Shown: positions 38,794-64,000 of the stretch, one piece after another | Position numbering within the stretch: position 1 is the stretch's first letter | How the letters are laid out: every line of letters starts with the position of its first letter | NCBI GenBank assembly: GCA_965204725.1 | Contig: OZ242005.1 | Span: 4,832,001-4,896,000, forward strand | Length of the DNA stretch: 64,000 nucleotides | Source: Candidatus Latescibacterota bacterium | Lineage (GTDB): Bacteria > Latescibacterota > UBA2968 > UBA8231 | Reading direction: 5' to 3' | Notes under the pieces: model-generated | Seen by the model: only the letters and a program-made list of their open reading frames with translations | Told to the model about the DNA's origin: nothing | The model's database searches: none | Position numbers and translations under genes: made by a program

Positions 38794-41700
38794 ATGAACC
38801 ATAAGCAGGTATTTGATCACATCCTCGGGCGGCACTACACGAACTTCGACGGGCTGGCCGGGATGCACGTGGAAGACATCTACCAAGACCGCCGCGGCCT
38901 GCTCTGGATCGCCACGGCCGACGGCGGCGTGGGCCGGTTCGACGGAGCGAATTTCGACATCTTTAGCCTCTCGAGAGGGGTTCCCCATATCACGGTAATG
39001 ACGATTGCTGAGGACCCAGACGGGCGAATGCTCTTCGGCACTCTCGGCGGCGGGCTAGCCGTATATGACGGGCAGGGGTTTCAGGTGCATACCACCGAGC
39101 ACGGGCTGCCGTCCAATGAGATCATGAGCCTGCAACCCCAAGCCGATGGCTCAATGCGGATGCTGACCGGCGCGGGGATAGGCCGGTTCGTCGATGGCCA
39201 GTGCGTAGAGTGCGTGACAGAAATTGCGGGGCAGCCGCTAGGCCCGGTGTACGACATGGCGACCGACGCGGCCGGTACGACGTGGTTGGCGACGCGGGAG
39301 CGCGGGGTTCTCAGCCTAGAGGGCCAGCCCCTGAGTGGGGACTTAGGCACGGGAAGCGGCGCGATGCAGTGGCCGTGGAAATTCGCCCAAGGCCCCTCCG
39401 GCCCTCTGTGGATCGCCTTTCGCTACACCGGTCGCAAACCCATTATCGGCTGCTATGATCCAGCGAGCAACCAGCTCGAACTCGTCGAGGTGGATGACCC
39501 AGCCGAGGAAGCCGAGATCGTCTGGCACGGTACGCGGCACGTGCGCGTCGATGATAGAGGCTTGCTGTGGATGACCTGCCGGGGCGTCTTGGTGTACGAC
39601 GGACGGGCTTGGCATCCATTCGCCACCGAGTTGCCGGATAGCCATTTTTCGGCGACGCGACTGACGTATGAAGACCGCGAGGGGAACATCTGGTTGGGGC
39701 TGTGGGGCGGCGGGCTGGTTTTTTGCGATCCGGTCAGCGTCCAGCTATACACCCAAGCCGATGGCCTGCCCGACAGCGAGGTCCAGTGTCTGAGCGAAGA
39801 CCGCGAAGGTCGGCTGTGGATCGGTACGATGGGGGGCTTGGCCTGCCGCCAAGACGACCGGATTCGCCCGGTAGATCCAAGGCGGGAGGTCTCAACGCTG
39901 GTGATTGACCAACAGGGGCAAGTCTGGAGCACAGGACCTGAGGGAGACATATTCAAGGCGACGGGTGGAGAGGCCGAGGCGATTGAGGGGGCCGAGACGA
40001 CCCTCACGGAAGGAATCGCGGGGCTGTGGGAAGACCAAGCAGGACGCCTAAACGTCTGCACTTCCGAGGGGCGATTGGGGCGGATCGAACAAGGTCGCTT
40101 TACGCCACTTGCGGAGCGGTTTCCCCGCGGTTGCACGGTCGTGTTACAGGATGGAGCAGGGACCCTCTGGGTCGGCCTCAGTAGGAAAGAGTCCGCGCTA
40201 TGCTATTATGAGGATGGTCGTTTCCACACGCCGACGGTGGCCGGCGTGAAAGACATCGGGAGTGTGAGTGCTTTGTGCGAGCACCAAGGCGCACTCTGGA
40301 TCGGGACGGAAAACTATGGCCTGTTCGCCTTGGACTACGCTTCCGAGGAGATCCGCCGGTTTACGGTGGATCAGGGGGGGCTGTCGGTCAATGGGATCTC
40401 GGCTCTGATGAGCGATCCGCAAGGCGATCTGTGGATTGGGACCAGCGGTGGGGGCGTCCTGAAGTACGACGGCCGGACCTTCCATACCATTCGGCTGGGA
40501 CAGGGCGCGTTGGAAAACATCGTCGAGGCCATTGTGCGCGACAGCCGGGGCCGGCTGTGGTTTGGGACGCGCAGGGGTCTCATTGCGTATCGGCCCGGGG
40601 AGACGCCGCCGCGCATCCTAATCCGCCAAGTCGTGGCCGGCCGAACTTGGGACGACCCCCAAGCCGTGTCCTGCCCAGACAGCACCCCCGAGATTCAGTT
40701 TCACTTCCAAGGCATCAGTTTCAGGAGTGGGGCCGGGCAGATGCGCTACAGCCACCGGCTCGTCGGCCCCGGCCGGGCCGAAGAGTGGAGCGCGTTCACG
40801 CCCGCCAATAAGGCGACGTACCGAGACGTGCCGGCCGGCCAGTTCCACTTTGAGGTGCGGACCACCGATCGGGATGGCTTGCTATCGGACATCGCCCGCC
40901 TAGAGGTTCGAGTGACCCCCTCTCCCCAGCGGCACATAGAGCACATGCTGCGGGCCTCGCATCAGGGTTTTATCAGCCAAAGTCCGGCCATGGCCGAGGT
41001 TCTCGAACGGGTCGACTCAATGGCCGAGGCGGACCTGCCGGTGCTGGTGCTGGGCGAGACCGGGGTTGGCAAGGGGGTGTTGGCGCGGCTTATCCACGAC
41101 CTTAGTCCGCGCCGAGCGAAACCCTTTATAGCGGTCAATTCCGGGGGCTTGTCCACCGGGGTGATACACAGCGAACTGTTTGGCCACGAAAAGGGGTCCT
41201 TTACCGACGCGCATGCCCAAAGAATCGGCTATTTTGAACGGGCTGATGGCGGCACCTTGTTCCTCGACGAGATAGGCGATTTGTCCGTAGAGTCCCAACA
41301 GCTCTTGCTCCACATCTTAGAGGATAAGAACCTGATGCGCCTCGGCGGCGGAAAGCCGATCCCGATAGATGTGCGGATTGTTGCTGCGACCAACAAGGAC
41401 CTCGAAGAGGCCATTCAGGCGGGCGTGTTCCGGGATGATCTGCTCTATCGGCTGAGGACATTATCAGTATTAGTACCGCCGCTGCGGGAGCGTCGGGAGG
41501 ATATCCCGCTCTTGGCGGCGTATTTTGCGAACCAGTGTGCCCAAACCCTAAAGCGGCCGGTGCCGACCTTAAGCGACGAAGTACTCGCGCACTTGCAGGA
41601 ATATCCTTGGCCGGGGAATGTGCGCGAATTGGCGCATCTGATACAGCAGGCGGTGGTGCTGGGCAAAGGGGATGTCATGCGGATAGAGGATGTACCGCTG

Positions 41701-41949
41701 ATGGCGGCCCCACCTGTTGAACAAGGCTCCGACGAGGGCACTGACGATGACGCCAAAAAGTGGGGATTCTTCGACGAGGATGCTAGAAATGAAGCCGAAA
41801 AGCAGCGAATTCTGAAGGCTCTCCAAACCACGAACTGGCGGGTCTCTGGCCCGCGGGGGGCGGCTCAGTTGTTGGAGATAAGCCCGGAGAAGCTGCGCTA
41901 TCGCATGCGTAAGTACGGGTTGAAACGGCCCGGGAAGGCGTCGCAGTAA
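38794..41949 (+). CDS. Sigma54-dependent enhancer-binding protein with N-terminal Reg_prop beta-propeller and Y_Y_Y domains
   Basis: Repeats EDREGRLWIGT / DSRGRLWFGT / DGLP; Y_Y_Y-like YSHRLVG...YRDVPAGQFHFEV; AAA+ GETGVGK, ELFGHEKGSFTDA, LFLDEIG, FRDDLLYRL, WPGNVREL; C-terminal Fis HTH AAQLLEISPEKLRYRMRKYGL. Confidence 0.92.
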   Translation: MNHKQVFDHILGRHYTNFDGLAGMHVEDIYQDRRGLLWIATADGGVGRFDGANFDIFSLSRGVPHITVMTIAEDPDGRMLFGTLGGGLAVYDGQGFQVHTTEHGLPSNEIMSLQPQADGSMRMLTGAGIGRFVDGQCVECVTEIAGQPLGPVYDMATDAAGTTWLATRERGVLSLEGQPLSGDLGTGSGAMQWPWKFAQGPSGPLWIAFRYTGRKPIIGCYDPASNQLELVEVDDPAEEAEIVWHGTRHVRVDDRGLLWMTCRGVLVYDGRAWHPFATELPDSHFSATRLTYEDREGNIWLGLWGGGLVFCDPVSVQLYTQADGLPDSEVQCLSEDREGRLWIGTMGGLACRQDDRIRPVDPRREVSTLVIDQQGQVWSTGPEGDIFKATGGEAEAIEGAETTLTEGIAGLWEDQAGRLNVCTSEGRLGRIEQGRFTPLAERFPRGCTVVLQDGAGTLWVGLSRKESALCYYEDGRFHTPTVAGVKDIGSVSALCEHQGALWIGTENYGLFALDYASEEIRRFTVDQGGLSVNGISALMSDPQGDLWIGTSGGGVLKYDGRTFHTIRLGQGALENIVEAIVRDSRGRLWFGTRRGLIAYRPGETPPRILIRQVVAGRTWDDPQAVSCPDSTPEIQFHFQGISFRSGAGQMRYSHRLVGPGRAEEWSAFTPANKATYRDVPAGQFHFEVRTTDRDGLLSDIARLEVRVTPSPQRHIEHMLRASHQGFISQSPAMAEVLERVDSMAEADLPVLVLGETGVGKGVLARLIHDLSPRRAKPFIAVNSGGLSTGVIHSELFGHEKGSFTDAHAQRIGYFERADGGTLFLDEIGDLSVESQQLLLHILEDKNLMRLGGGKPIPIDVRIVAATNKDLEEAIQAGVFRDDLLYRLRTLSVLVPPLRERREDIPLLAAYFANQCAQTLKRPVPTLSDEVLAHLQEYPWPGNVRELAHLIQQAVVLGKGDVMRIEDVPLMAAPPVEQGSDEGTDDDAKKWGFFDEDARNEAEKQRILKALQTTNWRVSGPRGAAQLLEISPEKLRYRMRKYGLKRPGKASQ

Positions 41950-41956
41950 GGCTGGC

Positions 41957-41987
41957 TTCCCGCCCCGTGTCGGGGCACGGGGGGACG
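41957..41987. repeat. REP-like element core (inverted copy)
   Basis: Reverse complement CGTCCCCCCGTGCCCCGACACGGGGCGGGAA matches the core of the 7643-7729 element. Confidence 0.65.
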
Positions 41988-42070
41988 GTCTGGCTCGGGA
42001 AGGACGGAGACCGGCTCTACGGCTTGTTCAACACGCCCCAATTTTCAGATCGCTTCTTAGAGGACGCTGT

Positions 42071-42140
42071 AAAAAGTTGTGCAAAAGTTGTGCAAAATCT
42101 GTTCACTTGCACAAGTTTTGCACAAGTTTTGCACAAAAAA
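42071..42140 (+). promoter_or_regulatory. Putative upstream activator sequence: phased TTGTGCAA/TTGCACAA boxes
   Basis: TTGTGCAA at 42077 and 42088 (degenerate at 42099); inverted TTGCACAA at 42107, 42118, 42129; 11-bp period; about 130-190 bp upstream of the sigma54 promoter; conserved in the copy at 55361-55430. Confidence 0.7.
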
Positions 42141-42217
42141 GTCGCAAATCAACTTGCGATGACGCCTCATGCTGGCCTCGTTGAGATTTTTTTTTGCTAT
42201 CCAACGTCTTGTTTTTC

Positions 42218-42248
42218 AATCCTTTAGGTATTCCTAAAGGATTTTTTT
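42218..42248 (+). terminator. Hairpin with T-tract (terminator-like or operator)
   Basis: AATCCTTTAGG-TATT-CCTAAAGGATT followed by Ts; arms conserved and loop changed (GAAT) in the copy at 55508-55533. Confidence 0.5.
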
Positions 42249-42266
42249 GTGCCGGACCGGCATCTT

Positions 42267-42282
42267 TGGCACGAAATTTGCA
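42267..42282 (+). promoter_or_regulatory. Sigma54 (-24/-12) promoter
   Basis: TGGCACGAAATTTGCA matches the TGGCACGNNNNTTGCW consensus; downstream of a sigma54 activator gene. Confidence 0.88.
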
Positions 42283-42327
42283 ATAGTCTTTACAAGCGCA
42301 TTTCATCTACCATGAGGCGTAACGGAT

Positions 42328-43473
42328 ATGGAAGCCCTGCTCAACGATTTTGGCCGCGTGTTTTTGCTGGAGTTGGTTATGGCCTGCGCCATTACCATCT
42401 GCGGTTGCTATACAACCTATACCGATATTCACTTCCGCCATATCCCCCATTGGGCTAGTTGGGGACTGCTGGCCGTAGGTTTAATAGGCCAAGGTCTATT
42501 TTGGATTTGGGGTGCGGTCGAACTGGACCAAGCAGGCATCGTCTTGTTGGTCGGTTTTGTTGTTGGTTACGTACTCTATATCTACGGATTTTGGGCACCC
42601 GGCGACGCCAAGTTGTTTTGGGCTTTTGTCTTGGTGCTGCCGCCGACGTTCTTCCCCTCCACTTCCCTCTCCTCCTTTGACGCGCCGATTTGGGCGCTCC
42701 TGCTCAACGCCTTAGTGCTCACCTGTTTTGTCTTGCTGGCGCTGTGGGCGGTTTTGCGTCGGGGGCGGTCGGCGGAAGTCGAGGGGGATTGGGGGCCATC
42801 GCAATGGCTGTATCTAGGCTTGGAGTTGGCCGGCCTGATAGGGCTCGTGCTGGGGTTTGGCTCCTTCCTGCTGGCCGAGACGATGACCTTTGTAGAGGTC
42901 GTGGTCGCCATCTTGGTGCTCTATCTGCTCGTTGACCACTTCGTCCCCCAGAGTTACCGGCTGACCTTGGCCCTGCCCGGTCTTATCCTCGGCGGCTACA
43001 CGGCCCTGCAATCGGGAGAATGGCTGATCTATCTGGTGCTGTGGGTCCTCGCTTGGGGGGTGTTCTCCCTCTATAGCATCATCCGGCATCTAGTCCCTCG
43101 GCACTTCGTACAGGCGATTCCTATTCAGGCGTTGCGCGCCGGCATGGTGCCGCAGGTAGCGATCTACGCGGCGGATACCGGCGGAGCGGCGGAATACCGT
43201 TGTGGCGCAGAGGTTGGGCCGGGGCAAGATGTGCTGTGTTATCCTGGCCGGCCGTTGACCAAGGGGCAGGTGCGGACGTTGCACGAAAAATCGGCGGGCG
43301 GTGCTTTCGCGCCGTTTGGCCATGAGTTGGCAGTGGAACTGGCCGTCCCTTTCGCGCCGATAATCGCCGTCGCTGGGGTGCTGACCCTAGTCTTGGGCGG
43401 CAGTCTAATCAGACCCCTGATACAGTTGTTCTCTCCGTGGCTGCCGTCGCTTCAGCAGTTGTTGGTGGGGTAA
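42328..43473 (+). CDS. A24 prepilin/preflagellin peptidase-like aspartic peptidase (FlaK/PibD-like C-terminal domain)
   Basis: First Asp motif TYTDIHFRHIP, GxGD-type motif WAPGDAKLF, multi-TM, soluble insert followed by VPFAPIIAVAGVLTLVLG as in archaeal-type preflagellin peptidases. Confidence 0.8.
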   Translation: MEALLNDFGRVFLLELVMACAITICGCYTTYTDIHFRHIPHWASWGLLAVGLIGQGLFWIWGAVELDQAGIVLLVGFVVGYVLYIYGFWAPGDAKLFWAFVLVLPPTFFPSTSLSSFDAPIWALLLNALVLTCFVLLALWAVLRRGRSAEVEGDWGPSQWLYLGLELAGLIGLVLGFGSFLLAETMTFVEVVVAILVLYLLVDHFVPQSYRLTLALPGLILGGYTALQSGEWLIYLVLWVLAWGVFSLYSIIRHLVPRHFVQAIPIQALRAGMVPQVAIYAADTGGAAEYRCGAEVGPGQDVLCYPGRPLTKGQVRTLHEKSAGGAFAPFGHELAVELAVPFAPIIAVAGVLTLVLGGSLIRPLIQLFSPWLPSLQQLLVG

Positions 43474-43475
43474 TC

Positions 43476-44093
43476 ATGAACCGAGATAGAAAAGACCCTG
43501 TAACACTGGCCTTTGGCGTCCTGTTGGTCGCCTTGCTGCCAACCTTTTTCCTGTTGGTGAGCCACTACCCGTCGTTAGAGGAGCGCGTGCAACAGTTGAA
43601 GCCTAAGCCCTTGGTGCCCGCGCCTTCACTGGAGGATCTGTTGGCGCAAGTCAGCCAAGCCGTATCCGACAGTACGCTCCAACTCCAACAGGTATGGGCT
43701 GCCGAGCCGGAACCGACTTCTGGCCTAGTGGCCGACTACAAGGTCGTGCGCGGCGGCCTAGCGGTCTATCGGCTGGTTCTATTCCGCCACGACATCGCCT
43801 GTAGCGTGTGCCGGGACGTGTTGGCCGCCGCTCTGTACGATGGCGACTCACTGGTGCAGATCTTTCTGCTCGACGATTGGGAGGTGCGCGGCGAGCGGGT
43901 TGATACCGCACAGTTTTTGCGCCAATTCGCGGGTCGCCCGCTGGCAACCGAACTGGCTCTTGAGGCCAATGTCGATGGGATCAGCGGGGCCACGTTTTCA
44001 ACCGGGGGCCTCGTCGAACAGCTCAACACGGCGGCGGCGTGGGTGCGGGCGCATCCGCTGGAGCCGCCGGCAAGCGAGGGAGAAAACCTGTGA
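43476..44093 (+). CDS. Membrane-anchored FMN-binding protein with CxxC
   Basis: N-terminal TM, CSVC, FLRQFAG...VDGISGATFST (FMN_bind flavinylation motif). Confidence 0.8.
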   Translation: MNRDRKDPVTLAFGVLLVALLPTFFLLVSHYPSLEERVQQLKPKPLVPAPSLEDLLAQVSQAVSDSTLQLQQVWAAEPEPTSGLVADYKVVRGGLAVYRLVLFRHDIACSVCRDVLAAALYDGDSLVQIFLLDDWEVRGERVDTAQFLRQFAGRPLATELALEANVDGISGATFSTGGLVEQLNTAAAWVRAHPLEPPASEGENL

Positions 44094-44629
44094 ACGCTCT
44101 CAGACCCAATCGCTGGGCTACGACCTTGATCGTGGCTACGGGCCTCCTGTTGGGAGCCTGTGTATTCCTAGCGGCCAAGATCGTCAATCCTCCGCCGATT
44201 GATCGGCTCGATGTGGCGTTTTGGGATTTGCTGGGTACGCAAGCGGCTATCCTCGAATTAGAGAGCCTGACGGGCACAGACAAGGTTTCCAACGCGCAGT
44301 TTGCGGGCGAGCCCTATCTGCTCATTTTCGCCGACCCGACTTGCAGTGCCTGCGAGGCCATTTATCCCCACTTGCTGCGCGCCTCGCAAGTGCAGGGCGT
44401 GAATGTCCTGTTCATTGCCTCGGGCGACCGGCAGGCGATGCAAGACAAAGTGGAGGAACACAGTTTTGCATTCCCGGTCGCCTTTGATTCCCTGTTGACG
44501 GCCAATAAGCCCTTTGAGGTGGGTGCTTTTCCCGCCTCTGTACTGGTGGATGCCGAAGGCAACATTGCCAAAGCCGCTACCGGCGATCAGGGTGCTGTCG
44601 CCGTAATACGCTTGGCTGGTAGTTCCTGA
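44090..44629 (+). CDS. Membrane-anchored TlpA/redoxin-family protein
   Basis: GTGA overlap start, TM anchor, CSAC, FPVAFD, AFPASVLVDAEG. Confidence 0.82.
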   Translation: MNALRPNRWATTLIVATGLLLGACVFLAAKIVNPPPIDRLDVAFWDLLGTQAAILELESLTGTDKVSNAQFAGEPYLLIFADPTCSACEAIYPHLLRASQVQGVNVLFIASGDRQAMQDKVEEHSFAFPVAFDSLLTANKPFEVGAFPASVLVDAEGNIAKAATGDQGAVAVIRLAGSS

Positions 44630-44644: not shown

Positions 44645-45349
44645 ATGTACGTTGTAACTCTCTTGCGTCGTCCGGTGGTGTGGACGGTGGTGGCCAGCGT
44701 CGCGGTCGTGGTCTTTTTGGCCTTGCGTCCCTCTTCGTCGGCCCTCTCGCCGGTGGTGTGGACCGAGCCCTCGGCTAATCCGCTGGCCGAGGTGCTGCGG
44801 CCGGGGGATACCGCGCCGGACTTCGCGCTGCCGGCGGTACAGGGCGGCACGGTCGCCTTGAGTGCGTTGCGGGGAAAGCCCGCTTTGCTGGCCTTTGTTA
44901 CGGCGGAGTGTCCGTATTGTCAGAAGCTATACAAGCAACTCGAAGCCTTTGAACTGAATGCGGACCAACAACTCGTATTCATCTGCCCAAGCGAGGAGGG
45001 TGCTCGGAAAATCAGCGAGACCTATTCCTTTACGTATCCGGTGTTGATCGACTCGGCTGGGGCGATTTCACAGGCGTACAAAACCCCTGGGGTGCCTGCG
45101 GTGTATCGGGTCGGCCCCGAGGGGAAGATTGTGGATTTGGCGGTGGGATGGCCGACGGCTTGGACGTTTGTTCGGGGTTTTGGCCGCCTCCAGCTTAGCG
45201 AAGGCTCTGAAGGTTATTCGTTTAATGGCTCAATCATCATGCTGGCCCAGAAAGGAGGTGCATCCCGTGCTCGTAGGTTTGATGCTCGTCAGCAACCACA
45301 ACGGTTTGCTGATCCTTTTTCCAATTACTCAAGGAGAATTGCGTTATGA
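44645..45349 (+). CDS. Membrane-anchored TlpA/redoxin-family protein
   Basis: GDTAPDFALP, CPYC, YPVLID, GVPAVYRVGPEGKI. The last ~45 residues run over the repeated intergenic segment and may be read-through. Confidence 0.85.
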   Translation: MYVVTLLRRPVVWTVVASVAVVVFLALRPSSSALSPVVWTEPSANPLAEVLRPGDTAPDFALPAVQGGTVALSALRGKPALLAFVTAECPYCQKLYKQLEAFELNADQQLVFICPSEEGARKISETYSFTYPVLIDSAGAISQAYKTPGVPAVYRVGPEGKIVDLAVGWPTAWTFVRGFGRLQLSEGSEGYSFNGSIIMLAQKGGASRARRFDARQQPQRFADPFSNYSRRIAL

Positions 45350-50851: not shown

Positions 50852-50860
50852 GGAGCGGAC

Positions 50861-53128: not shown

Positions 53129-54334
53129 ATGGAAATCATTCCGTTAATTCCCGAATGCGACGTAGCGGTACAGCGTATGCGAGTCGAACAAAATCGCGAT
53201 GTACGCACCCAAGCGAAGGCTTGTCTCCTTTTGGGTCGTTATTACAAGGAACAAGGAGAACTCGACAAGGCCGAAGCACTGTACCAAAGAGCCTTTGCGA
53301 AAGCACGGTCGTTGCAGGCGCATGACATAGAAGCCGATGCGTGTAGTGGCTTGGGGCTTATGTATCAGGTCAAGGGTCGGATGGATAAGGCGGTTGAGTA
53401 TCTCAATGCAGCCTTTGCCATCAATAGCCAACGCCGCGATAACGAGCGTTTGGCCGTCAACTATAGCAATAGAGGCTTTATCGCCCAGCTCCAAGGAAAA
53501 ATCGCAGAGGCCCAAGAGTTGCATATCCTCGCTCAGCAACTCCACACAGCGTTGGGGAATAGGGCTTATTGGGCTGAAGAATGCGGCAACTTGGGGCAAT
53601 TGGCACTCCAGCAAAACAAACCGGAGGAGGCTGAGGCTCACTTCCAGCAGGGCTTGAACGTTTGCACAGAACTCGGCGATCTGTCGGGCATTTCCGGCCA
53701 CTATCAGGGCTTGGGGCTAGTCTATCTCGGACAGCAGCGGTTGGCCGAAGCCGAAACCGTCCTTAAAAAAGGCGTTGAGATCGAGGAGCGACTCCAGCGC
53801 GACGAGGGGTTGGCTCATCATTACAGCGTTCTGGGGGCCGTATATAGTCAAGCGGGTCGATTTGATGAGGCGGAAGCAATGTACCGTCAGACGCTGGCTA
53901 TCCAACGAAAATTAGGCCATAAACAGTTTGAGGCTCGCACCTTGGGCGGTTTGGGGCAGGTGCTACGGGAGAAAGGTGCTCTGCAAGAAGCCACGGCGTT
54001 CTTCCAACAGGCTGGGGCACTGTTCGACGCGATTGGAGACAACAAAGGCCAAGCGATGCAAGCAGCTATTTTGGGCGATACTTATATGGACGTTGAAAAC
54101 TTTTATGCGGCTGAGGAGGCGTATCGGCAGGCGTTGCAAGTGTTCACGGAAGTATCGGACTTAGAGGCTGTCGCCGCCATTAAAGTCAGCTTGGGGAGGG
54201 CCTATGCGTCGAATCAGGCCCCTTTTGATGCCTTACTTCAGTGGCGGCAAGCACTGGAACTATACCGCGAACTCCAACGAGACGACAAGGTTGAGTTCGT
54301 AGAACAACTTCTGAGGACGAGCGGCCGAATGTGA
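53129..54334 (+). CDS. Tetratricopeptide repeat protein
   Basis: About nine 40-aa TPRs (LGRYYKEQGELDKAEALYQRA, LGAVYSQAGRFDEAEAMYRQTLAI). Confidence 0.9.
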   Translation: MEIIPLIPECDVAVQRMRVEQNRDVRTQAKACLLLGRYYKEQGELDKAEALYQRAFAKARSLQAHDIEADACSGLGLMYQVKGRMDKAVEYLNAAFAINSQRRDNERLAVNYSNRGFIAQLQGKIAEAQELHILAQQLHTALGNRAYWAEECGNLGQLALQQNKPEEAEAHFQQGLNVCTELGDLSGISGHYQGLGLVYLGQQRLAEAETVLKKGVEIEERLQRDEGLAHHYSVLGAVYSQAGRFDEAEAMYRQTLAIQRKLGHKQFEARTLGGLGQVLREKGALQEATAFFQQAGALFDAIGDNKGQAMQAAILGDTYMDVENFYAAEEAYRQALQVFTEVSDLEAVAAIKVSLGRAYASNQAPFDALLQWRQALELYRELQRDDKVEFVEQLLRTSGRM

Positions 54335-55350: not shown

Positions 55351-55360
55351 GCTAATCTGT

Positions 55361-55622
55361 AAAAAGTTGTGCAAAAGTTGTGCAAAATTTGTTCAGTTGC
55401 ACAAGTTTTGAACAAGTTTTGCACAGAAAATCGCCGATCAACTTGCGACGACGCCTCATGTCAGCCCCGTAGAGAATTTTTTTTCGCTATCCAACACCTT
55501 GTTTTTCAATCCTTTAGGGAATCCTAAAGGATTTTTTTGTCCCGGATCGGCATTGTTGGCACGAAAATTGCAATAGTATTTGTAGAGAGGCGTAACGGAT
55601 ATGGAAGCCCTACTCAACGATT
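55361..55622 (+). promoter_or_regulatory. Duplicated enhancer, hairpin and sigma54 promoter, with the first 7 codons of the peptidase gene
   Basis: Repeat boxes 55361-55430, hairpin 55508-55533, TGGCACGAAAATTGCA at 55557-55572, ATGGAAGCCCTACTCAACGAT (MEALLND) at 55601. Confidence 0.85.
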
Positions 55623-55764
55623 GCTTTGGGGGTCATTCGTTTAATGGCTCAATCATCATGCTGGCCCAGAAAGGAGGTGCATCCCGTGCTCGTAGGTTTG
55701 ATGCTCGTCAGCAACCACAACGGTTTGCTGATCCTTTTTCCAATTACTCAAGGAGAATTGCGTT

Positions 55765-56318: not shown

Positions 56319-58454
56319 ATGCGCGGTTTGCTCGTTGCGATTGGATTGGTGGTGGCTCCATTTAAGGTCTTGGCTTTAACATGGGATTTTGACGCGGGCA
56401 CGACTTGGGGATGGGCAGCCCAAGAGAGTGCCTTCGGCTCAGACCATGGTACGACCACGGTGTACAGCGAAGTCGCAGATGGCGTCTGGCGCATTGCGCC
56501 GGTGCCGCACGGGAAAAGACCAGCCATTCGCTTGCTCTCGCCGTTGATTGGGGAAGACTCTGACCTGTTCGACTGGGTCACCCTACGGCTACGCATCATC
56601 CACGATCTCCCCACCGAGGGGGTCCTCGAAATGTCGTGGACCAATGTCGAGTACAGACACCGCAAGAAGGAAGACCCCAGCGTAGGGTTGGGATTTTTTG
56701 TAAGCCGTCCTCAAGTTTATTCCACCGAATGGGAAGACATCACTATAGATATACGGGCTTTGGAAGCGGCTCCAGCAGGAGAGATCGATTGGGAGGTCAT
56801 TTGGCAGGACACCCTCTTCCACTTCTTCTTAGACCTAGACTTATTGCATCTACACGACATACAAGAATCTGTCTTAAGCCCGGCGGCTCGTCCGACCTTT
56901 GTCGAAGTCGATTGGATTCAACTGACGGGTGCTGAAGAGTTGCTGCTGGGGGAGTTGCAGCCTCGGGCGAGCATCGTGGAGGCCGGGTTGCCTGGGACGT
57001 TGTTTGCGGAACCGCGTTTTTCGGTGTTGGGTCAAAATATCGGTAGCCCAGGATCGCAGGGTGCTTTGGGCGATATGGACGGCGATGGAGATGCCGATCT
57101 AGTCGTGACATGGTTCTCAATAGCGGGCAGTAGCTGGGCTATAGCGACTAGCGATGGCTTGGGGGACTTGGCTTCGACCCAAGAGGTCCTCTTCCCACAG
57201 AAGGCGGCTTATTCGGAGATTGCGGGAGGCGATTTCGACGGGGATGGGCTTCTCGATCTGGCCTTTAGTACCGGTCGAACTATCGAATTGTGGCTCAACC
57301 GGGGCGAGGATGGATTTGAAACCATCCTACAGCTAACCGACGTCGGCTGGCTCGTTAGTCTAGCCGATGGCGATGGCGATGGCGATGTGGACCTGTTGGT
57401 GGTAGAAGACCACGACGACCTATGGTCTAACATGACGATGTGGATCAATGACGGCGCGGGCGGGTTTGCCCACAGCGATCGGTTCGTCCTCGATACCGAA
57501 GAAGAGCTCGCTCCTTCCCTGTTGGCAGGACAACCGGTGGGCGAGGCTGCGCGCGTACTGTGGAACCGACCCTGCTGGAAGCCGCAGGGGCCGTGGCGGC
57601 TGACCCAGCCATGGGCGGCAAACGAGGAGCCACCGCTGTTTTTTGAGCTTGGGGAGGTCAACCTCTGCGACATGCACCTGCTGGCCGATCTGGATGGGGA
57701 TGGATCGGTTGAGTTGGTCGGAACGCCCGAGCGGAACCTGTACCTAGGCTTTTCTGGCGGCAACACCCATCACGGTTTAGCCCTGTGGCGCGTGGACGCT
57801 TCGGGCGGGGTGGAACGCCATACCCTGCTCGGTCCGCAGGTGATCGTGCCGTATTCGTGGCCTGCGAGTGGGGGCATTGCCAGCGACCTGACCGGCGATG
57901 GCCTTTTGGACTTGGCCGTGATCAATGCCAACTTAGCGATGAATCCGGCCCTGATCGTCTTGGTTGGCCAGCGCGATGGCCTGCCCGTCGTCGAAGGGCA
58001 CTACCCCCTGCCCACCATCGGCCGCAGCCTGCTCGCAGGCGACGTCAACGGCGATGGGGCGACCGATCTGGTCGTGCTGGGGCGGAGTCAGCGCGGCGAC
58101 GGCGGAGCCTTCGTCTTCCTCAACCAAGGCGTTCCCGCCACTGCCATCGCCGCCGAGACGACGACCGTGCCGACAGCCTTTGTCCTTGGGGCGAATTATC
58201 CCAACCCGTTCAACCCGGCTACAACCATCCCCCTTACTCTACCCGCCGGAGCCGAGGAGGTCGATTTAACCATCTACAACGTCTTAGGGCAGCCGGTGCG
58301 CCGCGTGTGGAACGGTTCGTTGGCGGCCGGCGAACACCGGCTAGCTTGGGATGGCCGGGACGCACAAGGACAGCCGGTCGCCGCTGGAGTCTATTGGTAT
58401 CGGTTGCAGGTGGACGACCAGACGCGCACCCGCAAGATGGTCAAAATCGAATAG
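56319..58454 (+). CDS. Secreted FG-GAP/VCBS-repeat protein with FlgD-Ig/T9SS-like tail (FG3)
   Basis: Close paralog of FG1 and FG2. Confidence 0.9.
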   Translation: MRGLLVAIGLVVAPFKVLALTWDFDAGTTWGWAAQESAFGSDHGTTTVYSEVADGVWRIAPVPHGKRPAIRLLSPLIGEDSDLFDWVTLRLRIIHDLPTEGVLEMSWTNVEYRHRKKEDPSVGLGFFVSRPQVYSTEWEDITIDIRALEAAPAGEIDWEVIWQDTLFHFFLDLDLLHLHDIQESVLSPAARPTFVEVDWIQLTGAEELLLGELQPRASIVEAGLPGTLFAEPRFSVLGQNIGSPGSQGALGDMDGDGDADLVVTWFSIAGSSWAIATSDGLGDLASTQEVLFPQKAAYSEIAGGDFDGDGLLDLAFSTGRTIELWLNRGEDGFETILQLTDVGWLVSLADGDGDGDVDLLVVEDHDDLWSNMTMWINDGAGGFAHSDRFVLDTEEELAPSLLAGQPVGEAARVLWNRPCWKPQGPWRLTQPWAANEEPPLFFELGEVNLCDMHLLADLDGDGSVELVGTPERNLYLGFSGGNTHHGLALWRVDASGGVERHTLLGPQVIVPYSWPASGGIASDLTGDGLLDLAVINANLAMNPALIVLVGQRDGLPVVEGHYPLPTIGRSLLAGDVNGDGATDLVVLGRSQRGDGGAFVFLNQGVPATAIAAETTTVPTAFVLGANYPNPFNPATTIPLTLPAGAEEVDLTIYNVLGQPVRRVWNGSLAAGEHRLAWDGRDAQGQPVAAGVYWYRLQVDDQTRTRKMVKIE

Positions 58455-58463
58455 GAAGCGGAC

Positions 58464-59822
58464 ATGCTGGAGATGTGCGCCAACCCGAAAAGAGAAGGAC
58501 ATAAGACGATGAGACGACCATGGAAAGTACCGTTACAAAAAAATAGAAAGCTGCAAGGCTGCTTGGTGTTGTCGCTGGCCTTGCATCTGCTGGTGATCTT
58601 CGGCATCACGCACCGCGAGCAGGTTGCCCAATTTCCCGTCCTACAGCCGATCATGGTGGAGTTTACCAAACGCCCGCCGCCGCAGCGCACGCTGAACCGT
58701 CGGCAACGACCCCGGCAGCGGCCGTTGGCGCGGCGACCCGCCCTGCAAGCGGCCCCAGTCGCCGCGGTGCGCCCAGCCCCCACGGCGACGCGCCCCCTGC
58801 CGATGTTCAAGTCAGCGGCACTTAGGCTGCCAACGGCGGCCCTGCCGGACCGGCTGGTGCTGCCGGTGCCGGACTTCCCCGCTCGGCACATTGGTCCACA
58901 AATGCAGGCTGGAGCACTCAAAGGGACGAGGCAGGGGGCCGACGAGATTGACTTGGCCTTGGAACTGATGGATGTGCAGGCCATGGACACCGGCCAGCAC
59001 CGGGCGATGGTGGTCGTCGATCCAAAAGACCGGCGTCAACTCAAGGGATTCCTCTATATGTCCAATGTGTATAGCCCTTCCATCGAACGGGCTGAGTCGG
59101 AAACATCGCGCCGACTTTTGCAGACGCGCCAAATGGTAGAAAACCGGATGCTACAAGGGCTGGCCGACAAAATGGTCGCCAGTACGCAGGTTCACGCCGA
59201 AGTGCTCGACGCGGTGGCACTGGACGACCCCCAACTATTGCAGGTGCCCTTCGTCCTCCTGACGGTGAGTGATCATTTCGAGTTCACCGAGGCGGAGACA
59301 GCTAATCTCGGGGCGTATTTGACTTCGGGTGGCTTCCTGTTTGCGGATATTGTGAGCGAATTGCCGCGCGAATACAGCGACGACCAATTGGACATTCCCG
59401 CAGTGCGTTCCCTCATTCGCACCAGTTTGCAGGCGGCCGGGTATCAAGAGTGGAAGGACTGGCAATTTAGACGCCTAGCGATGACCCATCCGATCTATCA
59501 TTGCTTCTACAATGTGGAGAGTCTCCCGCGCGGGATGCGCGATATGCACTATGCCGGCGGAGTGCCGCGGACTCCGGACTATTTGGAGGGCATCGTCGTC
59601 GAGGATCAGTTGGTGGGCGTGTATTCGATGCGTGGCTACGCCGATTTCTGGGCGGGAATCGCCAAGGAGGAAGCGGAGATATTTGATCCGGTCCTTTTTG
59701 TCGGTAGTCCGTTTCGGGCTAGTGCCGAGGAGCCGATGGTGTATAACTTGGGCGTGAACTTCTTGGTATATGCGTTGACACGAGAAGGCTCATTAGCCCA
59801 ACAATTAGTCGCTGCGGACTGA
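58464..59822 (+). CDS. DUF4159-domain protein, paralog 2
   Basis: N-terminal ~200 aa nearly identical to 50861-52243; C-terminal domain diverged but keeps the same motifs. Confidence 0.8.
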   Translation: MLEMCANPKREGHKTMRRPWKVPLQKNRKLQGCLVLSLALHLLVIFGITHREQVAQFPVLQPIMVEFTKRPPPQRTLNRRQRPRQRPLARRPALQAAPVAAVRPAPTATRPLPMFKSAALRLPTAALPDRLVLPVPDFPARHIGPQMQAGALKGTRQGADEIDLALELMDVQAMDTGQHRAMVVVDPKDRRQLKGFLYMSNVYSPSIERAESETSRRLLQTRQMVENRMLQGLADKMVASTQVHAEVLDAVALDDPQLLQVPFVLLTVSDHFEFTEAETANLGAYLTSGGFLFADIVSELPREYSDDQLDIPAVRSLIRTSLQAAGYQEWKDWQFRRLAMTHPIYHCFYNVESLPRGMRDMHYAGGVPRTPDYLEGIVVEDQLVGVYSMRGYADFWAGIAKEEAEIFDPVLFVGSPFRASAEEPMVYNLGVNFLVYALTREGSLAQQLVAAD

Positions 59823-60723: not shown

Positions 60724-60732
60724 GGAACTGAT

Positions 60733-63231
60733 ATGCTAGAGACATTGCGCCAACGTATATCGACTCGTTTGCAGAATCTGAGCGTCCGGCTGCAACGCGC
60801 CGGCACGGTCAAGGGTCTGCCGCGCCACGAGTGCCCCGTCTTGATTTTTTTCCACGGCTACAGCTTGGCCCACACCATCCGACCGCTGGTCGTGGGACGA
60901 GCCCTGCGAGGGCGCGGCTACCCCGTCGAATTCGCGGGAGTGGGGCCTCACACCGCTCGGATCGCCGCCGAAGGCTTTCGAGTGTACGAGGTAGAAACCA
61001 TGCCGCAAAGCCACCTAGACCGATACGCGGCCCGTGGCGACTACGGAGACTGCAATGCGGAGAGGATAGACCGCTGCGTACAAGCCGAACGCGCCCTCCT
61101 CCGGCGGCTCCGCCCTGCCCTCGCGCTGGCAGACCTGCGGCCCACCTTGTCGCTTACCGCCTCTCTTGAAGGAATAGATATAGCCCTGATAGAAGCGGCC
61201 TACAACCAACCGGACTATCCGTTTCCCATTCGCCTGCCCACGTCCTTTTCCTTGGGCACCGAGCCATTCGACGAATACGCTCGTAATCACATCTCGACCT
61301 TCAAGCCACACCACACCTTCTACTTGGTGGCCGATGTGCCCCAATTCCACCCACCGGGTGAACAGACCCCATCCTATTATTGCTATGTGGGGCCATTGAT
61401 CGAGTCCCCACCGCCTCGCCCTATCGCGGAACTGAGCGATTGGGACGATTCGTTGCCGCTAGTCTATTTCAACTGCGGCAGCACCGGGGGCCATCCTAGC
61501 TTTCTCGACGAGGTGCTGGGCCGCATGGCCCATAAACCCTACCGCGTCTTGGTGACCACCGCGGGTCGTTGGGCCGGACAGGGAGCGGCCCCCAATATCC
61601 GCGTCGCCGACTTCGTGCCCGCGGCTTGGGTGTTGGCACAGGCGACCCTCTTCGTGGGGGTAGGCGGCATTGGTTCCATCTACCACGCCTTGCGCCAAGG
61701 CGTACCCGTGGTCGGTGCGCCCGAGCACTTGGACCAAGAGTACCACCTCAACCGAGTGCGCGACCTCGGCTTGGGATTCAAGCTCAACTGGGACGAGTTT
61801 CTCCGGGCGACTCCCCTGTTGGAGGCCATCGACGATCTCCTGACCCGCCACCGCGAATTTGCCCCGCGTTGTCGGGCCTTTGCCGCCCACGTGGGGGAAT
61901 GGGACGGAGGCCAAGCCGCGGCCGATGCGATTGACGCCTTTTTTGTGGACCAGCGTTCTGCCCACCCAATAGAGGCGGCCTATCAGATGCCCGAGCCCGA
62001 ATTTATCCACTACCTCAACCTGAGCACCCCGGCCAACCTCGGCGTCGAGGAGATCCGCACCTTGCTCCACCGCAACCTGAGTCGCGGTTTGCCGCATATC
62101 CAACAGGGCAGCAAGATCGCCTTTGATCGGGCAAATTCTTGGAACTGGCTCTACGACCACGAACCTATGTTCTTTGAAAGCGATTATCGCGCCCTCGAAC
62201 AGAAACGCCGCGATTTTTTCTCTCCTGCGAATGGCCACGTCGCACTGCACCGAAATCGTCAACGCTATCGCCTCACCTATACCTATCGGCTCTACCCAGC
62301 GACCTTGCCGCCCGATGTACGTGCCCGGCTCTTTCTGCCCTATCCCATCCCTAGTCCACATCAAGGAGCTATCGAGTTGTGTGCTTGTGCGCCGGACGAT
62401 TTGCGAACTTGCTTTGCGCCGCAGGCCGGTTTTTTCTACGGCTATCCCGTCCGGGTGGAGGAGGCCGCTCCAGCCGCGGTGGATTTTTCTTACACCTGTG
62501 AGTTGACCGTGCAGGGGCGCATGGGGGCAACGGACCCGGCCCCGCTGTCGGCCAGTGAATACCGCCGCTACCGCGAAATCGATTCAAAGCTGGCGCAAGA
62601 AGCGGTCGTCCAAAACTTCTTTGCCGCATTGGACTTGGACGCGGTGGAAGACCCGTTGGAAAAGGCGCGTCGCATCTACGCCCAATTAGCCGCGGTCAAG
62701 CGCTTCAAAAAAACCAAAGAGCAATCGCAGGACTTGGCCTCTTGCATCCACGTGGTGTTGAACGACAGCGGCGGCCACTGCATAACCCTGTCCAATGCCT
62801 TTATCGCCCTTTGTCGGCTACAGGGAATCGCGGCGCGGGCGGTCACCGGAGCCCTCGCCGGCTACCCCACAGGCGAGGGTCGTTTTGAGATGGCGGCCTA
62901 TAACGAGATTCTCTTTGGGCACACGTGGGCGGAGATTTTCGCGCCGGGCCAAGGTTGGGTGCCGGTAGAATTTCACGGTATTGTCATCGGCCCACAGGCG
63001 GCCACCACGGACAACGTCGCCGACGAAGCCCTGCGCCGCCACATCGCCGAAGTCGGCGGTCGCTACGTCGATTTTTACTTTGGCCAGTTGGATTGCCACC
63101 GCGTGGTGTGCTCCAATTCAGTCAAGACCGTACCGCAACTGTTGGCTTGGCGCGAGCCTGCGTCCGGGTCGCCGTTCTACGGGCCGGAAGGCTTACAATA
63201 CGAGTGCCGACTCGTCTTAGAGTGCATTTGA
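60733..63231 (+). CDS. GT-B glycosyltransferase (GT1/GT28-like) fused to a transglutaminase-like domain
   Basis: N-terminal LAHTIRPL, YVGPL, VYFNCGSTG, ADFVP, GGIGSIYHALRQGVPVVGAPEHLDQ; C-terminal GHCITLSNAFIALCRLQGIAARAVTG, GHTWAE, GWVPVE. Confidence 0.82.
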   Translation: MLETLRQRISTRLQNLSVRLQRAGTVKGLPRHECPVLIFFHGYSLAHTIRPLVVGRALRGRGYPVEFAGVGPHTARIAAEGFRVYEVETMPQSHLDRYAARGDYGDCNAERIDRCVQAERALLRRLRPALALADLRPTLSLTASLEGIDIALIEAAYNQPDYPFPIRLPTSFSLGTEPFDEYARNHISTFKPHHTFYLVADVPQFHPPGEQTPSYYCYVGPLIESPPPRPIAELSDWDDSLPLVYFNCGSTGGHPSFLDEVLGRMAHKPYRVLVTTAGRWAGQGAAPNIRVADFVPAAWVLAQATLFVGVGGIGSIYHALRQGVPVVGAPEHLDQEYHLNRVRDLGLGFKLNWDEFLRATPLLEAIDDLLTRHREFAPRCRAFAAHVGEWDGGQAAADAIDAFFVDQRSAHPIEAAYQMPEPEFIHYLNLSTPANLGVEEIRTLLHRNLSRGLPHIQQGSKIAFDRANSWNWLYDHEPMFFESDYRALEQKRRDFFSPANGHVALHRNRQRYRLTYTYRLYPATLPPDVRARLFLPYPIPSPHQGAIELCACAPDDLRTCFAPQAGFFYGYPVRVEEAAPAAVDFSYTCELTVQGRMGATDPAPLSASEYRRYREIDSKLAQEAVVQNFFAALDLDAVEDPLEKARRIYAQLAAVKRFKKTKEQSQDLASCIHVVLNDSGGHCITLSNAFIALCRLQGIAARAVTGALAGYPTGEGRFEMAAYNEILFGHTWAEIFAPGQGWVPVEFHGIVIGPQAATTDNVADEALRRHIAEVGGRYVDFYFGQLDCHRVVCSNSVKTVPQLLAWREPASGSPFYGPEGLQYECRLVLECI

Positions 63232-63232
63232 G

Positions 63233-64000
63233 ATGGATATTTCCGTGGTCATTGCTACGCACAACCAGCAGGAACGGCTGCGGCTGGTATTGGCCGGATT
63301 GCGCGGCCAGACTGCGCCGGCTACGCGCTTTGAAGTGGTGGTGGTAGAAGACGGTTGTAGCGACAAAACGGCCGAGGTGCTCAGCGAGATTGAGCACCAG
63401 ATGGACCTAACAATTGTTCGCCTGCGGCCCAACGAGGGACGTTGTATGGCTCGTAACCGGGGGGTGGAGGCCGCCGCCGGGGAATTCGTCGCCTTCTTGG
63501 ACGGGGACGCCCTGCCGCATCCCCAATGGCTCCAACGCCATGTCGAAGCACTCGAACAGGGCGGGCGGGAGTCCCTGTTGTGCGGTGCCGAATACAGTCT
63601 GCCCGATTTGGAGTACCTGCAAGACCCCCAACGGGGGACGCCGATGGAGGACAAGACCCCGAGCGTAGTGCGCGAGTACCTCCGCTCCCACCGACCGGAG
63701 TTGATCCTGACCGAGGACATGGTCCTCAAAGCCTTTGACCGCGTCGAAGCGCGCGCCGTGCTCGGGGGGTATCCCTTTCCCGAACTCGAGATACTGCAGG
63801 AACAGATCGCCGAGCTTTTTGTCCAGCATCCCGATTCCCCGATTGGTTGGCTGGGCTTTTTCCCGCACAACGGCGTGGTTTCTAAGGAGGCTTTTTTAGA
63901 GGTGGGTGGTTTTGATCCCGACATGGCCTTTAGCGAAGGGTGGGATTTGGCTTATCGGCTGCAACAGCATGGGAGTCGGCCTCGCTTTGTCCCCGAGGCC
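63233..64000 (+). CDS. Glycosyltransferase family 2, truncated by the window end
   Basis: Not in the ORF track. ATG 63233: MDISVVIATHNQ...FEVVVVEDGCSD...ARNRGVEAAAGEFVAFLDGD...VGGFDPD...EGWDLAYRL. Confidence 0.9.
   Translation, partial: MDISVVIATHNQQERLRLVLAGLRGQTAPATRFEVVVVEDGCSDKTAEVLSEIEHQMDLTIVRLRPNEGRCMARNRGVEAAAGEFVAFLDGDALPHPQWLQRHVEALEQGGRESLLCGAEYSLPDLEYLQDPQRGTPMEDKTPSVVREYLRSHRPELILTEDMVLKAFDRVEARAVLGGYPFPELEILQEQIAELFVQHPDSPIGWLGFFPHNGVVSKEAFLEVGGFDPDMAFSEGWDLAYRLQQHGSRPRFVPEA

Follow-up and report, generated by a model that had tools for sequence, protein, structure and literature searches.

A sigma-54-type operon encoding a diversified family of small cysteine-rich proteins in Latescibacterota

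Genes and control elements of the operon

We analyzed a 64,000-nt stretch of DNA from a Candidatus Latescibacterota bacterium (assembly GCA_965204725.1, contig OZ242005.1, positions 4,832,001 to 4,896,000 of the forward strand), referred to at its full length as the window. From 38.8 kb to its end, the window holds an operon in which genes for small cysteine-rich proteins, here called P, stand among genes for FG-GAP propeller proteins (FG). A reading made from the letters alone (the sequence-only reading) had proposed this gene content, and it held up: all of the genes listed there were found on the plus strand, at or near the positions given, with their domains identified by Pfam and NCBIfam. 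The structural order, on the plus strand throughout, is A24 peptidase, CxxC/FMN-like protein, redoxin 1, redoxin 2, P1, FG1, P2, FG2, DUF4159, P3, TPR, and P4, followed by a second promoter and P5, FG3, DUF4159, P6, a glycosyltransferase (GT) 1-transglutaminase fusion (GT1-TG), and GT2, which exits the window. Judged by its sequence, the operon is a coherent, conserved multi-gene system. No described system matches it, and no description of it was found in those parts of the literature that our searches returned.

The operon is preceded by the gene for a sigma-54 activator (38764..41949), identified by Pfam, hydropathy, and its orthologues. Pfam matched Sigma54_activat (E 4.3e-61), Reg_prop (2.7e-40), HTH_8 (8.7e-7), an AAA lid and, below threshold, Y_Y_Y, an architecture that joins a propeller sensor of Reg_prop/Y_Y_Y-like type to an AAA+ domain and HTH_8. 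At the GAFTGA loop, the protein has G-S-F-T-D-A. Since Pfam found no receiver domain and hydropathy analysis no hydrophobic segment, the protein is probably a cytoplasmic one-component sensor-activator. Sensors of the Reg_prop/Y_Y_Y type are usually periplasmic, in hybrid two-component systems, and the sensor of this activator appears to be cytoplasmic, unlike that usual placement. Orthologues with 55-79% identity were found upstream on the same strand in L002, L006, L007, L008, and L014, five of the 18 P loci (L001 to L018) described below.

Downstream of the activator gene lie an enhancer (upstream activating sequence) consisting of the inverted array TGTGCAAAAG / TTGCACAAGTTT (42067..42140), recognized from its repeats and by alignment with other genomes; a terminator-like hairpin with an 11-bp stem and a T-run (42218..42243), which hardly varies in 10 of the 12 upstream regions aligned; and a sigma-54 promoter, TGGCACGAAATTTGCA (-24/-12; 42267..42282), 46 nt before the A24 start. 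All features of a sigma-54 regulon are thereby present: a -24 GG/-12 GC promoter, an upstream enhancer, and an AAA+ activator. The promoter is an exact match to TGGCAC-N5-TTGCA, as is a second copy at 55557, and these are the only two exact matches to the shorter TGGCAC-N5-TTGC in the 64 kb, both on the plus strand. The enhancer-hairpin-promoter module recurs whole at 55357-55572, with an enhancer 95% identical to the first by repeat comparison (55357..55430), a hairpin with T-run found by hairpin search (55508..55533), and promoter 2, TGGCACGAAAATTGCA (55557..55572). The enhancer, the sigma-54 promoter, and the second promoter copy, all of which the sequence-only reading had claimed, were thus confirmed by exact matches and inverted repeat arrays.

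Promoter 2 is followed by a scar (55601..55764) in which the first 22 nt of the A24 gene are fused to the last ~150 nt of the redoxin-2 gene, with the P ribosome-binding site kept. A repeat family, D11, accordingly pairs 45194-45493 with 55613-55912 at 97% identity. These leftover pieces of the two genes trace the second promoter copy to a segmental duplication with an internal deletion. The same promoter element was found upstream of A24 in L003, L004, L007, L013, L014, and L018, as a TTGCG variant before A24 in L002, and before internal P copies in L001 and L009. Across genomes the hairpin and T-run are almost invariant, while the surrounding intergenic DNA is variable. The hairpin between enhancer and promoter may have a role beyond that of a terminator, for example as the site of a bending protein.

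The first structural gene encodes an A24-family (GXGD aspartyl) membrane peptidase (42328..43473) with eight hydrophobic segments and an inserted soluble domain of ~80 residues. The hallmark of A24 enzymes is two catalytic Asp residues in membrane-proximal motifs of the D..I-P and G-x-G-D-x-K-L type. Here, all 9 homologues, one of them a paralogue with 42% identity, have the motifs Y-T-D-I..R-x-I-P and G-D-A-K-L unchanged. PF01478 matched all nine (best E 2.7e-9) and scored the window protein at 26.9 bits (cut-off 26.5). The subfamily is small, with 64 relatives at E<=1e-5 in two clades, named "A24 family peptidase" or "prepilin peptidase" at source.

The next gene (43476..44093) encodes a membrane-anchored CxxC protein with an FMN_bind-like C-terminus, one N-terminal transmembrane segment, and the motifs C-x-x-C and D-G-I-S-G-A-T-F-S, both invariant in 13 of 13 homologues. 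A CxxC/FMN protein had been proposed here from the sequence; its CxxC and S-G-A-T motifs stood, but homologue alignment moved the most likely start from 43437 to 43476 and the FMN_bind match is below cut-off. A PDB profile search with this protein gave nothing. The invariant S-G-A-T fits [S/T]GA[S/T], given as the ApbE flavinylation motif in PMC8238504.

Redoxin 1 (44039..44629; C-S-A-C) and redoxin 2 (44645..45349; C-P-Y-C) scored 36.9 and 63.8 bits against AhpC-TSA (cut-off 26). Each has one N-terminal hydrophobic segment, and both combine the fold match, CxxC, and extracytoplasmic anchor of TlpA/ResA-like proteins; NCBIfam scores for ResA, MauD, and StoA were far under the equivalog cut-offs. 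The redoxin 2 stop codon overlaps the start of P1. By hydropathy, the FMN-like protein, both redoxins, and DUF4159 each have a single N-terminal anchor, and the redox proteins are predicted to be anchored facing the same side.

FG1 (45896..48034) consists of a signal peptide, an N-domain, an FG-GAP propeller, and a type IX secretion system (T9SS) type A tail, as assigned by Pfam and NCBIfam. In alignments, FG2 (48722..50851) is 94% and FG3 (56319..58454) 90% identical to FG1, so that the three range from 90 to 94%, with differences clustered in propeller loops. Searches with the N-domain gave leads to sandwiches like those of carbohydrate-binding modules (CBM), all with scores <0.9. FG1-3, P3, P4, and P6 all end in a TIGR04183 T9SS type A tail above the curated cut-off of 23 bits (35.0 for FG1, 37.7 for P3, 37.5 for P4, and 36.8 for P6), and the Pfam Por_Secre_tail model scored the tails at 19.6-24 bits, below its cut-off of 27. 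Pfam found no T9SS machinery among the open reading frames (ORFs) of the 64-kb window.

The remaining genes encode two DUF4159 proteins (DUF4159 at 68.6 bits in Pfam), of which the first (50861..52243) has an N-terminal anchor and a Pro/Arg-rich linker and the second (58464..59822) was recognized by repeat comparison; a TPR protein (53129..54334); the fusion of a GT1 (MGT/UDPGT-like) to a transglutaminase-like core (60733..63231; Pfam, NCBIfam, and hydropathy); and a GT2 glycosyltransferase (63233..64000; Pfam), of which the window holds the first 256 codons. A full-length GT2 orthologue in L004 has 358 aa, so that ~100 codons are missing from the window. Among the papers that our searches returned, the sole one with the term DUF4159 was a Pfam release paper. 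The GT1-TG fusion is conserved in 145 proteins, and where their names bear an organism it is always a Latescibacter- or Gemmatimonad-type metagenome-assembled genome (MAG). By hydropathy, the GT1-TG, GT2, and TPR proteins have no signal peptide; the activator, TPR, and GT2 proteins have no hydrophobic segment, and GT1-TG has one internal stretch at threshold and none passing as a span. NCBIfam matched GT2 to no glycocin-type model, the best hits being EpsD and MftF, far below their cut-offs.

The P family: leader, core, and evolution

Six P genes lie in the window. P1 (45346..45687) and P2 (48178..48510), found by motif and family profile, encode a leader and a four-cysteine core with no tail and are 75-77% identical. 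P3 (52298..52978) has a His-rich insert in its core and a T9SS-type tail, and P4 (54491..55168) is P3-like with the same kind of tail (both by motif and NCBIfam). P5 (55765..56106) differs from P1 at 4 of 342 nt and encodes an identical protein, so the six genes specify five distinct proteins. P6 (59881..60723; motif, profile, and NCBIfam) has a shortened leader, two tandem 4-Cys cores, and a T9SS-type tail. The sequence-only reading had counted seven copies of a 4-Cys motif in these six genes, and the same pattern, run as a regular expression, gave seven matches in the genes and seven in the six-frame translation of the window, with none outside the six genes. The family profile scored the seven copies at E 1e-10 to 1e-53.

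We searched for relatives of the family and for any known family that it might match. Of 338 candidates from the P1 search, 175 proteins reached E<=0.01; all of these lack Pfam domains, and "hypothetical protein" is the only name they bear. P1 and P2 had no match in Pfam or NCBIfam, and NCBIfam gave no mini-protein family for P1-P4 or P6 at E<=0.01 (P5 being the same protein as P1). When 125 members were searched against Pfam, no family was matched by more than 5 of them (best E 0.006), and the best hit of a PDB profile search (E 0.009) was an unrelated kinase-scaffold protein. The claim that the 4-Cys core lies outside known families was therefore supported by Pfam, NCBIfam, and the PDB. The family is also rare: a profile of the 125 sequences found 70 of 1.84 billion cluster representatives at E<=1e-3, 27 at 1e-10, and 6 at 1e-30.

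Structure searches agreed. With the family alignment, AlphaFold2 (AF2) modelled residues 62-113 of P1 as three antiparallel strands with a predicted local distance difference test (pLDDT) score of 83-97, and the leader at <50; the core is thus predicted to be a folded beta-sheet mini-protein of ~50 residues. Foldseek of this core against the PDB and BFVD gave 0 matches at E<=1e-3. In the ESM Atlas, the top score (0.76) belonged to a hypothetical cluster labelled Poribacteria and counts as no more than a lead. Laterosporulin-type defensin-like bacteriocins (PDB 6lwy and 6lwz), also small disulfide-rich beta-sheet bacterial peptides, were in the Foldseek list, but these matches were insignificant (E 3.9 and 5.1; template modelling scores 0.45 and 0.40 by target, 0.23 and 0.22 by query) and there was no sequence similarity.

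Among 120 listed P proteins, the first ~60 residues (the leader) are 90-100% conserved per column and the core 20-50%; no enzyme of the operon is as conserved as this leader. The leader is made up of an N-extension with an invariant S-x-S-G-H-V-E-P-R, a hydrophobic segment of ~19 residues, A-x-A, and then D-x-C. In the core, hypervariable loops are set on a Cys framework, and the Ser/Thr positions S71 and T77 are invariant. From these parts the leader looks bipartite, an N-extension joined to a Sec-type signal. The sequence-only reading had likened the pattern to the conserved leader and variable core of ribosomally synthesized and post-translationally modified peptides (RiPPs); the pattern is real and extreme, but the leader looks Sec-type and unlike that of a RiPP. 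P was also considered as a lipoprotein and rejected, the residues before the first Cys (of A-D-S-C type) misfitting the lipobox consensus.

The same 120 proteins had 6 Cys in 54 cases, 4 in 38, 8 in 20, and another number in 8, and hence 4, 6, or 8 in 112 of 120. We also examined 55 distant representatives, 8 of 63 having been dropped as truncated, frameshifted, fused, or repetitive. These have shorter N-termini and keep S-x-S-G, P-R-x-G-L-S-L-G-W, the hydrophobic stretch, and A-x-A-D-x-C (S-x-x-G in 42 of 55, and A-x-A two residues before a Cys in 31 of 55), ahead of a scaffold C-x-G-I-P-x-G-x-C-G-W-x-C...C-H...C...C-x-C, mostly with 8 Cys. Because distant members mostly keep this 8-Cys scaffold, the core in the window appears to be a reduced subtype of an older framework. 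The 4-Cys repertoire proposed from the sequence is thus a real family, but by these comparisons most members have 6 or 8 Cys and the 4-Cys form is a derived subtype.

The cores of P3, P4, and P6 are rich in His, Tyr, and Asp, with D-H-Y-x-H runs and, in P3 and P4, the extra His-rich insert. D-H-x-G and Y-x-H positions are also conserved in the 6- and 8-Cys classes. Metal binding by P cores is conceivable.

To compare leader and core at the nucleotide level, we used the Nei-Gojobori method on 22 tail-less P genes (231 pairs) out of 33 profile matches, 8 tail-bearing genes, 1 gene cut by the locus end, 1 frameshifted gene, and P5 having been dropped. For the leader, median proportions of synonymous (pS) and nonsynonymous (pN) differences were 0.379 and 0.094, with a median dN/dS of 0.185. 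For the core, they were 0.666 and 0.468, with a dN/dS of 0.548 over 170 unsaturated pairs. Three paralogues on a single contig (L001, L002, and L009) had a leader pS of 0.021-0.042 and a core pS of 0.68-0.84. Selection on amino acids alone is insufficient to explain this contrast, which implies gene conversion, or recombination whose breakpoint lies where leader and core meet. In paralogues of L007, whose cores can be aligned, core dN/dS was 0.98-2.35 and leader pN 0-0.03. No reverse transcriptase of a diversity-generating retroelement was found among the window ORFs scanned with Pfam.

As far as sequences can tell, the pattern implies cassette-like evolution, with a homogenized leader and a replaced core, and such evolution points to an extracellular function in an arms race, as a toxin or antimicrobial, an adhesin, or a decoy. 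Animal conotoxin and defensin superfamilies have a signal or pro region conserved even at synonymous sites, a hypervariable mature peptide, a fixed Cys framework, and many paralogues per genome. By analogy they are nearest to P in evolutionary behaviour, but P is bacterial, operon-encoded, and accompanied by dedicated enzymes, and shares no sequence or fold with them (0 Foldseek matches in the PDB at E<=1e-3).

Recurrence of the operon in other genomes

We scanned one genome per species with patterns taken from the main leader class, which places the distant P members beyond the reach of the scan. Of 112 stretches matching the pattern, 20 were confirmed, giving 18 loci in 11 assemblies; by their titles, 17 loci are from Latescibacterota/Latescibacteria MAGs and 1 from Gemmatimonadota. 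Synteny was read by tblastn of the window proteins on the 18 loci. The canonical order is A24, in places preceded by the activator, then FMN-like, redoxin 1, redoxin 2, P, FG (with tail), GT1-TG, GT2, TPR, FG-like (without tail), and DUF4159, and the TPR, FG-like, and DUF4159 genes expected downstream of GT2 would fall beyond the window.

In 12 of the 18 loci, P directly follows the FMN-like and both redoxin genes, which in turn are preceded by a complete or partial A24. The A24 gene is full length in 8 of these; in L011 and L016 a contig end truncates it, and L003 and L005 have fragments. In a thirteenth locus (L012), the contig begins inside redoxin 2. The other five comprise L001 and L009, which are inner parts of the ~50-kb array of L002; L010 and L017, on contigs of 3-3.5 kb; and L006. 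Nine loci have both GT1-TG and GT2: seven of them (L004, L011, L013-L016, and L018) carry the pair downstream of P and FG, L008 carries it immediately downstream of P, and in L009 it precedes P. A tail-less P is followed immediately by FG in 20 of 23 assessable cases, the exceptions being L008 and two P genes in L010. One assembly (L011, L015, and L016) has three full copies of the operon with different cores. The co-occurrence of P with A24, FMN-like, redoxin, FG-GAP, and DUF4159 genes, offered by the sequence-only reading as a check, thus recurs in other genomes, as does linkage to the GT genes.

The ~50-kb array of L001, L002, and L009, all on one contig, is much larger than that of the window and contains five P genes (three tail-less and two with tails), at least 14 FG-type matches, and three DUF4159 genes; its two internal copies of the promoter have a deletion scar of the type seen in the window. 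Decayed copies also lie within arrays, namely a frameshifted P (L006, 11216-11764) and an interrupted FG (L003, 10555-13647), which suggests that P-FG units turn over.

The sequence-only reading had raised the concern that the copies in the window are an assembly mosaic, that is, strain variants of a single P-FG unit stitched in tandem. Repeats such as P1/P5 (99% identical) and FG1/FG2/FG3 (90-94%) are indeed hard to assemble. However, the copies differ in architecture, with a tail or none, one or two cores, and a DUF4159 or TPR neighbour, and the second promoter copy carries a specific deletion scar. Comparable or larger arrays, with internal promoter copies, recur on megabase contigs (L001, L002, and L009 within ~50 kb of a 5.6-Mb contig) and in chromosome-level records. 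For this reason we consider an artefact extremely improbable.

A divergent second copy of the system was found directly upstream of the main operon in L013 (14-6734) and L004 (72-6381). In L013 this module has A24' (41-42% identity), two redoxins, DUF4159, and FG' (~29%), and a motif scan found no P' gene beside it. The equivalent place in L004 has P', a tail-bearing protein of 272 aa with 14 Cys and a divergent leader. These sequences, from two different genomes, hint that peptidase and leader diverge together.

A proposed pathway and its rivals

Taken together, the data would fit a lineage-restricted, sigma-54-switched system that makes diversified, small, disulfide-rich, extracytoplasmic mini-proteins through a proposed maturation and export pathway, a reading to which we give an even chance. 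In this pathway, the hydrophobic segment, with an Arg before it, would insert P into the inner membrane with its N-terminus in and its C-terminus out. The dedicated A24-type GXGD protease would clip the cytoplasmic N-extension at a conserved Gly, in a geometry like that of TadV acting on Flp prepilin. In the periplasm, the TlpA/ResA-like redoxins and the CxxC/FMN-like redox relay would form or shuffle the 2-4 disulfides, and signal peptidase would free the core after A-x-A. Cores fused to a T9SS type A tail would cross the outer membrane directly, and tail-less cores would ride on, or act with, the adjoining tail-bearing FG-GAP protein. The cytoplasmic GT1-TG, GT2, and TPR proteins and the anchored DUF4159 proteins would be conserved accessories. 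A secreted or surface-displayed library of binders, toxins, or signals with its own folding, processing, and glycosylation enzymes, as conceived in the sequence-only reading, is borne out in part: the conserved linkage and the leader/core pattern hold, and glycosylation of P, its cleavage by A24, and these functions are candidates.

A fuller version, in which a conotoxin-like arsenal has cassette-like swapping of its cores, its leader kept identical by gene conversion, A24 as leader peptidase, a flavin/thioredoxin folding relay, and T9SS exit by its own tail or an FG-GAP carrier, is put forward tentatively, as somewhat doubtful. As a bolder extension, the clipped, invariant N-terminal peptide might serve as a cytoplasmic signal that feeds back on the propeller-sensor activator.

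For the export step, an N-terminal signal with a C-terminal tail is the cargo layout described for T9SS in PMC12618676. FG1-3, P3, P4, and P6 share it in having tails above the TIGR04183 cut-off. They differ in that the cargo is a 50-residue Cys module or an FG-GAP propeller and the host belongs to Latescibacterota, not Bacteroidota, and it is by the tail alone that they agree with T9SS cargo.

For the carrier step, we predicted the complex of FG1 residues 20-612 with the P1 core (residues 60-113), using own alignments, 3 runs, and 3 controls. The outcome fell in the class "weak support", with a median score of 0.55 (runs 0.00, 0.58, and 0.55) and a best control of 0.00; runs agreed in at least 0% of contacts, and partner pLDDT was at least 55. 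In a benchmark, 58 of 80 solved complexes passed the mark for support, as did 2 of 110 mismatched pairs, and those passing with scores of 0.60 or below included only 7 of the 80 complexes, plus both mismatches. We treat predicted P-FG binding as no more than a hypothesis.

Several observations weigh against the proposed pathway. A signal peptidase cut after A-x-A would make cleavage by A24 not obviously needed, although A24 could instead act like a signal peptide peptidase on the leftover leader. P6 and a relative, P0124, are conserved yet have no S-S-G-H-V-E-P-R motif. The Pfam score of A24 is barely above its cut-off; the protein had no NCBIfam match, a PDB sequence search gave 0 hits at E<=1, and its AF2 model was unusable (mean pLDDT 45.3). 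FMN_bind (PF04205) matched 13 of 13 FMN-like homologues, all below cut-off (18.9 bits for the window protein, against 22), and the match, ~19 bits in all 13, spans only profile positions 51-76 of 77. The dN/dS values come from an approximate method applied to ~50 codons, with alignments that cross Cys classes. Nor does P vary in step with FG: P1 equals P5, yet their neighbours FG1 and FG3 are only 90% identical, and FG1 is closer to FG2 (94%), whose neighbour P2 is 75-77% identical to P1. Finally, L006 has the activator and then FG with no A24 module within 10 kb, and in L008 and L010 P lies directly before GT1-TG with no intervening FG.

An unlikely alternative is that P is a glycocin- or RiPP-like precursor, glycosylated in the cytoplasm by GT2 and/or GT1 under guidance of the leader, freed of the leader by the transglutaminase-like cysteine-protease fold, and closed by the redoxins into two nested disulfides to yield a glycosylated bacteriocin. 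The sublancin cluster consists of SunA, SunS, BdbA, BdbB, and SunT. As in glycocins, a leader with a Cys-containing core, a GT2, and two thiol-disulfide oxidoreductases are found in one cluster here, and the conserved leader with variable core, the invariant S71 and T77, and the synteny of GT1-TG and GT2 with P in 9 loci, neither enzyme having a membrane span, all fit. However, no C39 peptidase or ABC exporter was found in the operon (38.8-64 kb) or between the conserved operon genes of the loci, and the leader, a membrane-length hydrophobic segment with A-x-A, is Sec-type and unlike glycocin leaders. Glycocins are helix-loop-helix peptides, whereas this core is predicted to be a beta sheet of ~50 residues with 4-8 Cys. 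Even Cys numbers, from 4 to more than 8, leave no spare Cys for S-glycosylation in 112 of 120 proteins; the GT2 lacks a glycocin-type model; and the operon adds an A24 peptidase, FG-GAP/T9SS proteins, DUF4159, and GT1-TG. The parallel with glycocins drawn in the sequence-only reading covers the presence of a GT2 and two oxidoreductases and is weak overall.

It is more doubtful still that P is a subunit of Flp or type IV pilin type, with A24 removing a class III signal peptide to give a surface fibre or anchor tipped by FG-GAP adhesins. Archaeal PibD, which acts on class III signal peptides, is a precedent for non-pilin substrates, and A24 resembles TadV and PibD as a GXGD protease that has no PilD-type N-terminal domain. 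In favour of such a function, an A24 peptidase with intact catalytic motifs comes first in the operon; P also has a conserved Gly shortly before its hydrophobic helix, 6-7 residues ahead of G-L and the hydrophobic stretch, close to the G/XXXXEY-G-L geometry of Flp, and the Arg before that segment fits an N-in orientation. Flp prepilins have Gly at -1, Glu at +5, and the hydrophobic helix directly after, but P has Glu at +3, its helix starts at +7 to +8, and P6 lacks the motif. None of the 125 P proteins matched Flp_Fap or N_methyl at E<=0.1, P1-P4 and P6 had no such match in NCBIfam, and no pilus ATPase, platform, or secretin was found in the conserved operon of the 18 loci (by tblastn with window proteins only, and by Pfam on window ORFs only). 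P further differs from Flp in its Cys-rich globular C-terminus and in the A-x-A after the helix, which predicts release of the core, and fusions to a T9SS tail must be soluble periplasmic intermediates.

P might also be an accessory subunit, chaperone, or regulator of FG-GAP effectors that bind glycans or hosts as adhesins, its variation being mostly relaxed constraint. FG genes outnumber P genes in arrays (one P and then at least five FG in L002, one P and then four in L009), tail-less P is followed directly by FG in the 20 of 23 cases noted above, and the CBM-like leads for the FG N-domain, together with the clustering of FG differences in propeller loops, suit a binding role for FG. But P-tail fusions exist that have no FG part (P3, P4, and P6; also in L001 and L006), which suggests that the P core is itself export cargo. 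A leader more conserved than any operon enzyme and a Cys scaffold kept in distant relatives are not expected under mere relaxed constraint. We therefore regard an accessory role for P as improbable.

If the proposed pathway is true, this would be the first bacterial example found in which a genome encodes a fast-diversifying set of disulfide-rich mini-proteins together with dedicated genes to process, fold, and export them, and it would give A24 peptidases a new job beyond pilus biogenesis. It would also provide a natural library of stable 50-residue scaffolds with 2-4 disulfides and hypervariable loops for binder or antimicrobial discovery, and a way to study the interactions of uncultured Latescibacterota, a group whose high biosynthetic potential PMC9426513 notes, with their neighbours or hosts. 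DUF4159 and the conserved GT1-TG fusion would gain a testable context.

Elsewhere in the window, a cluster on the minus strand (11013-20557) coincides with a drop in G+C, which is ~50% from 12 to 20 kb and 57-64% in the flanks. It encodes an S8 subtilase, a TPR protein, a CAAX/Rce1-like protease, Yip1, a redoxin, an ABC exporter, an ABC ATPase, and a 561-aa ORF, after which comes a DDE transposase (20075-20557); its gene content suggests an acquired island for peptide export or immunity. On the plus strand, a DUF433 protein (27105-28304) precedes a 1108-aa Type ISP restriction-modification enzyme (28758-32084; Type_ISP_C E 2.4e-88, N6_Mtase). Two tandem ORFs on the same strand (35297-36508 and 36535-37716; 403 and 393 aa) matched no Pfam family at E<=1e-5, are similar to each other by eye, and appear to be paralogous, and UxuA-like and sugar isomerase-like genes adjoin them.

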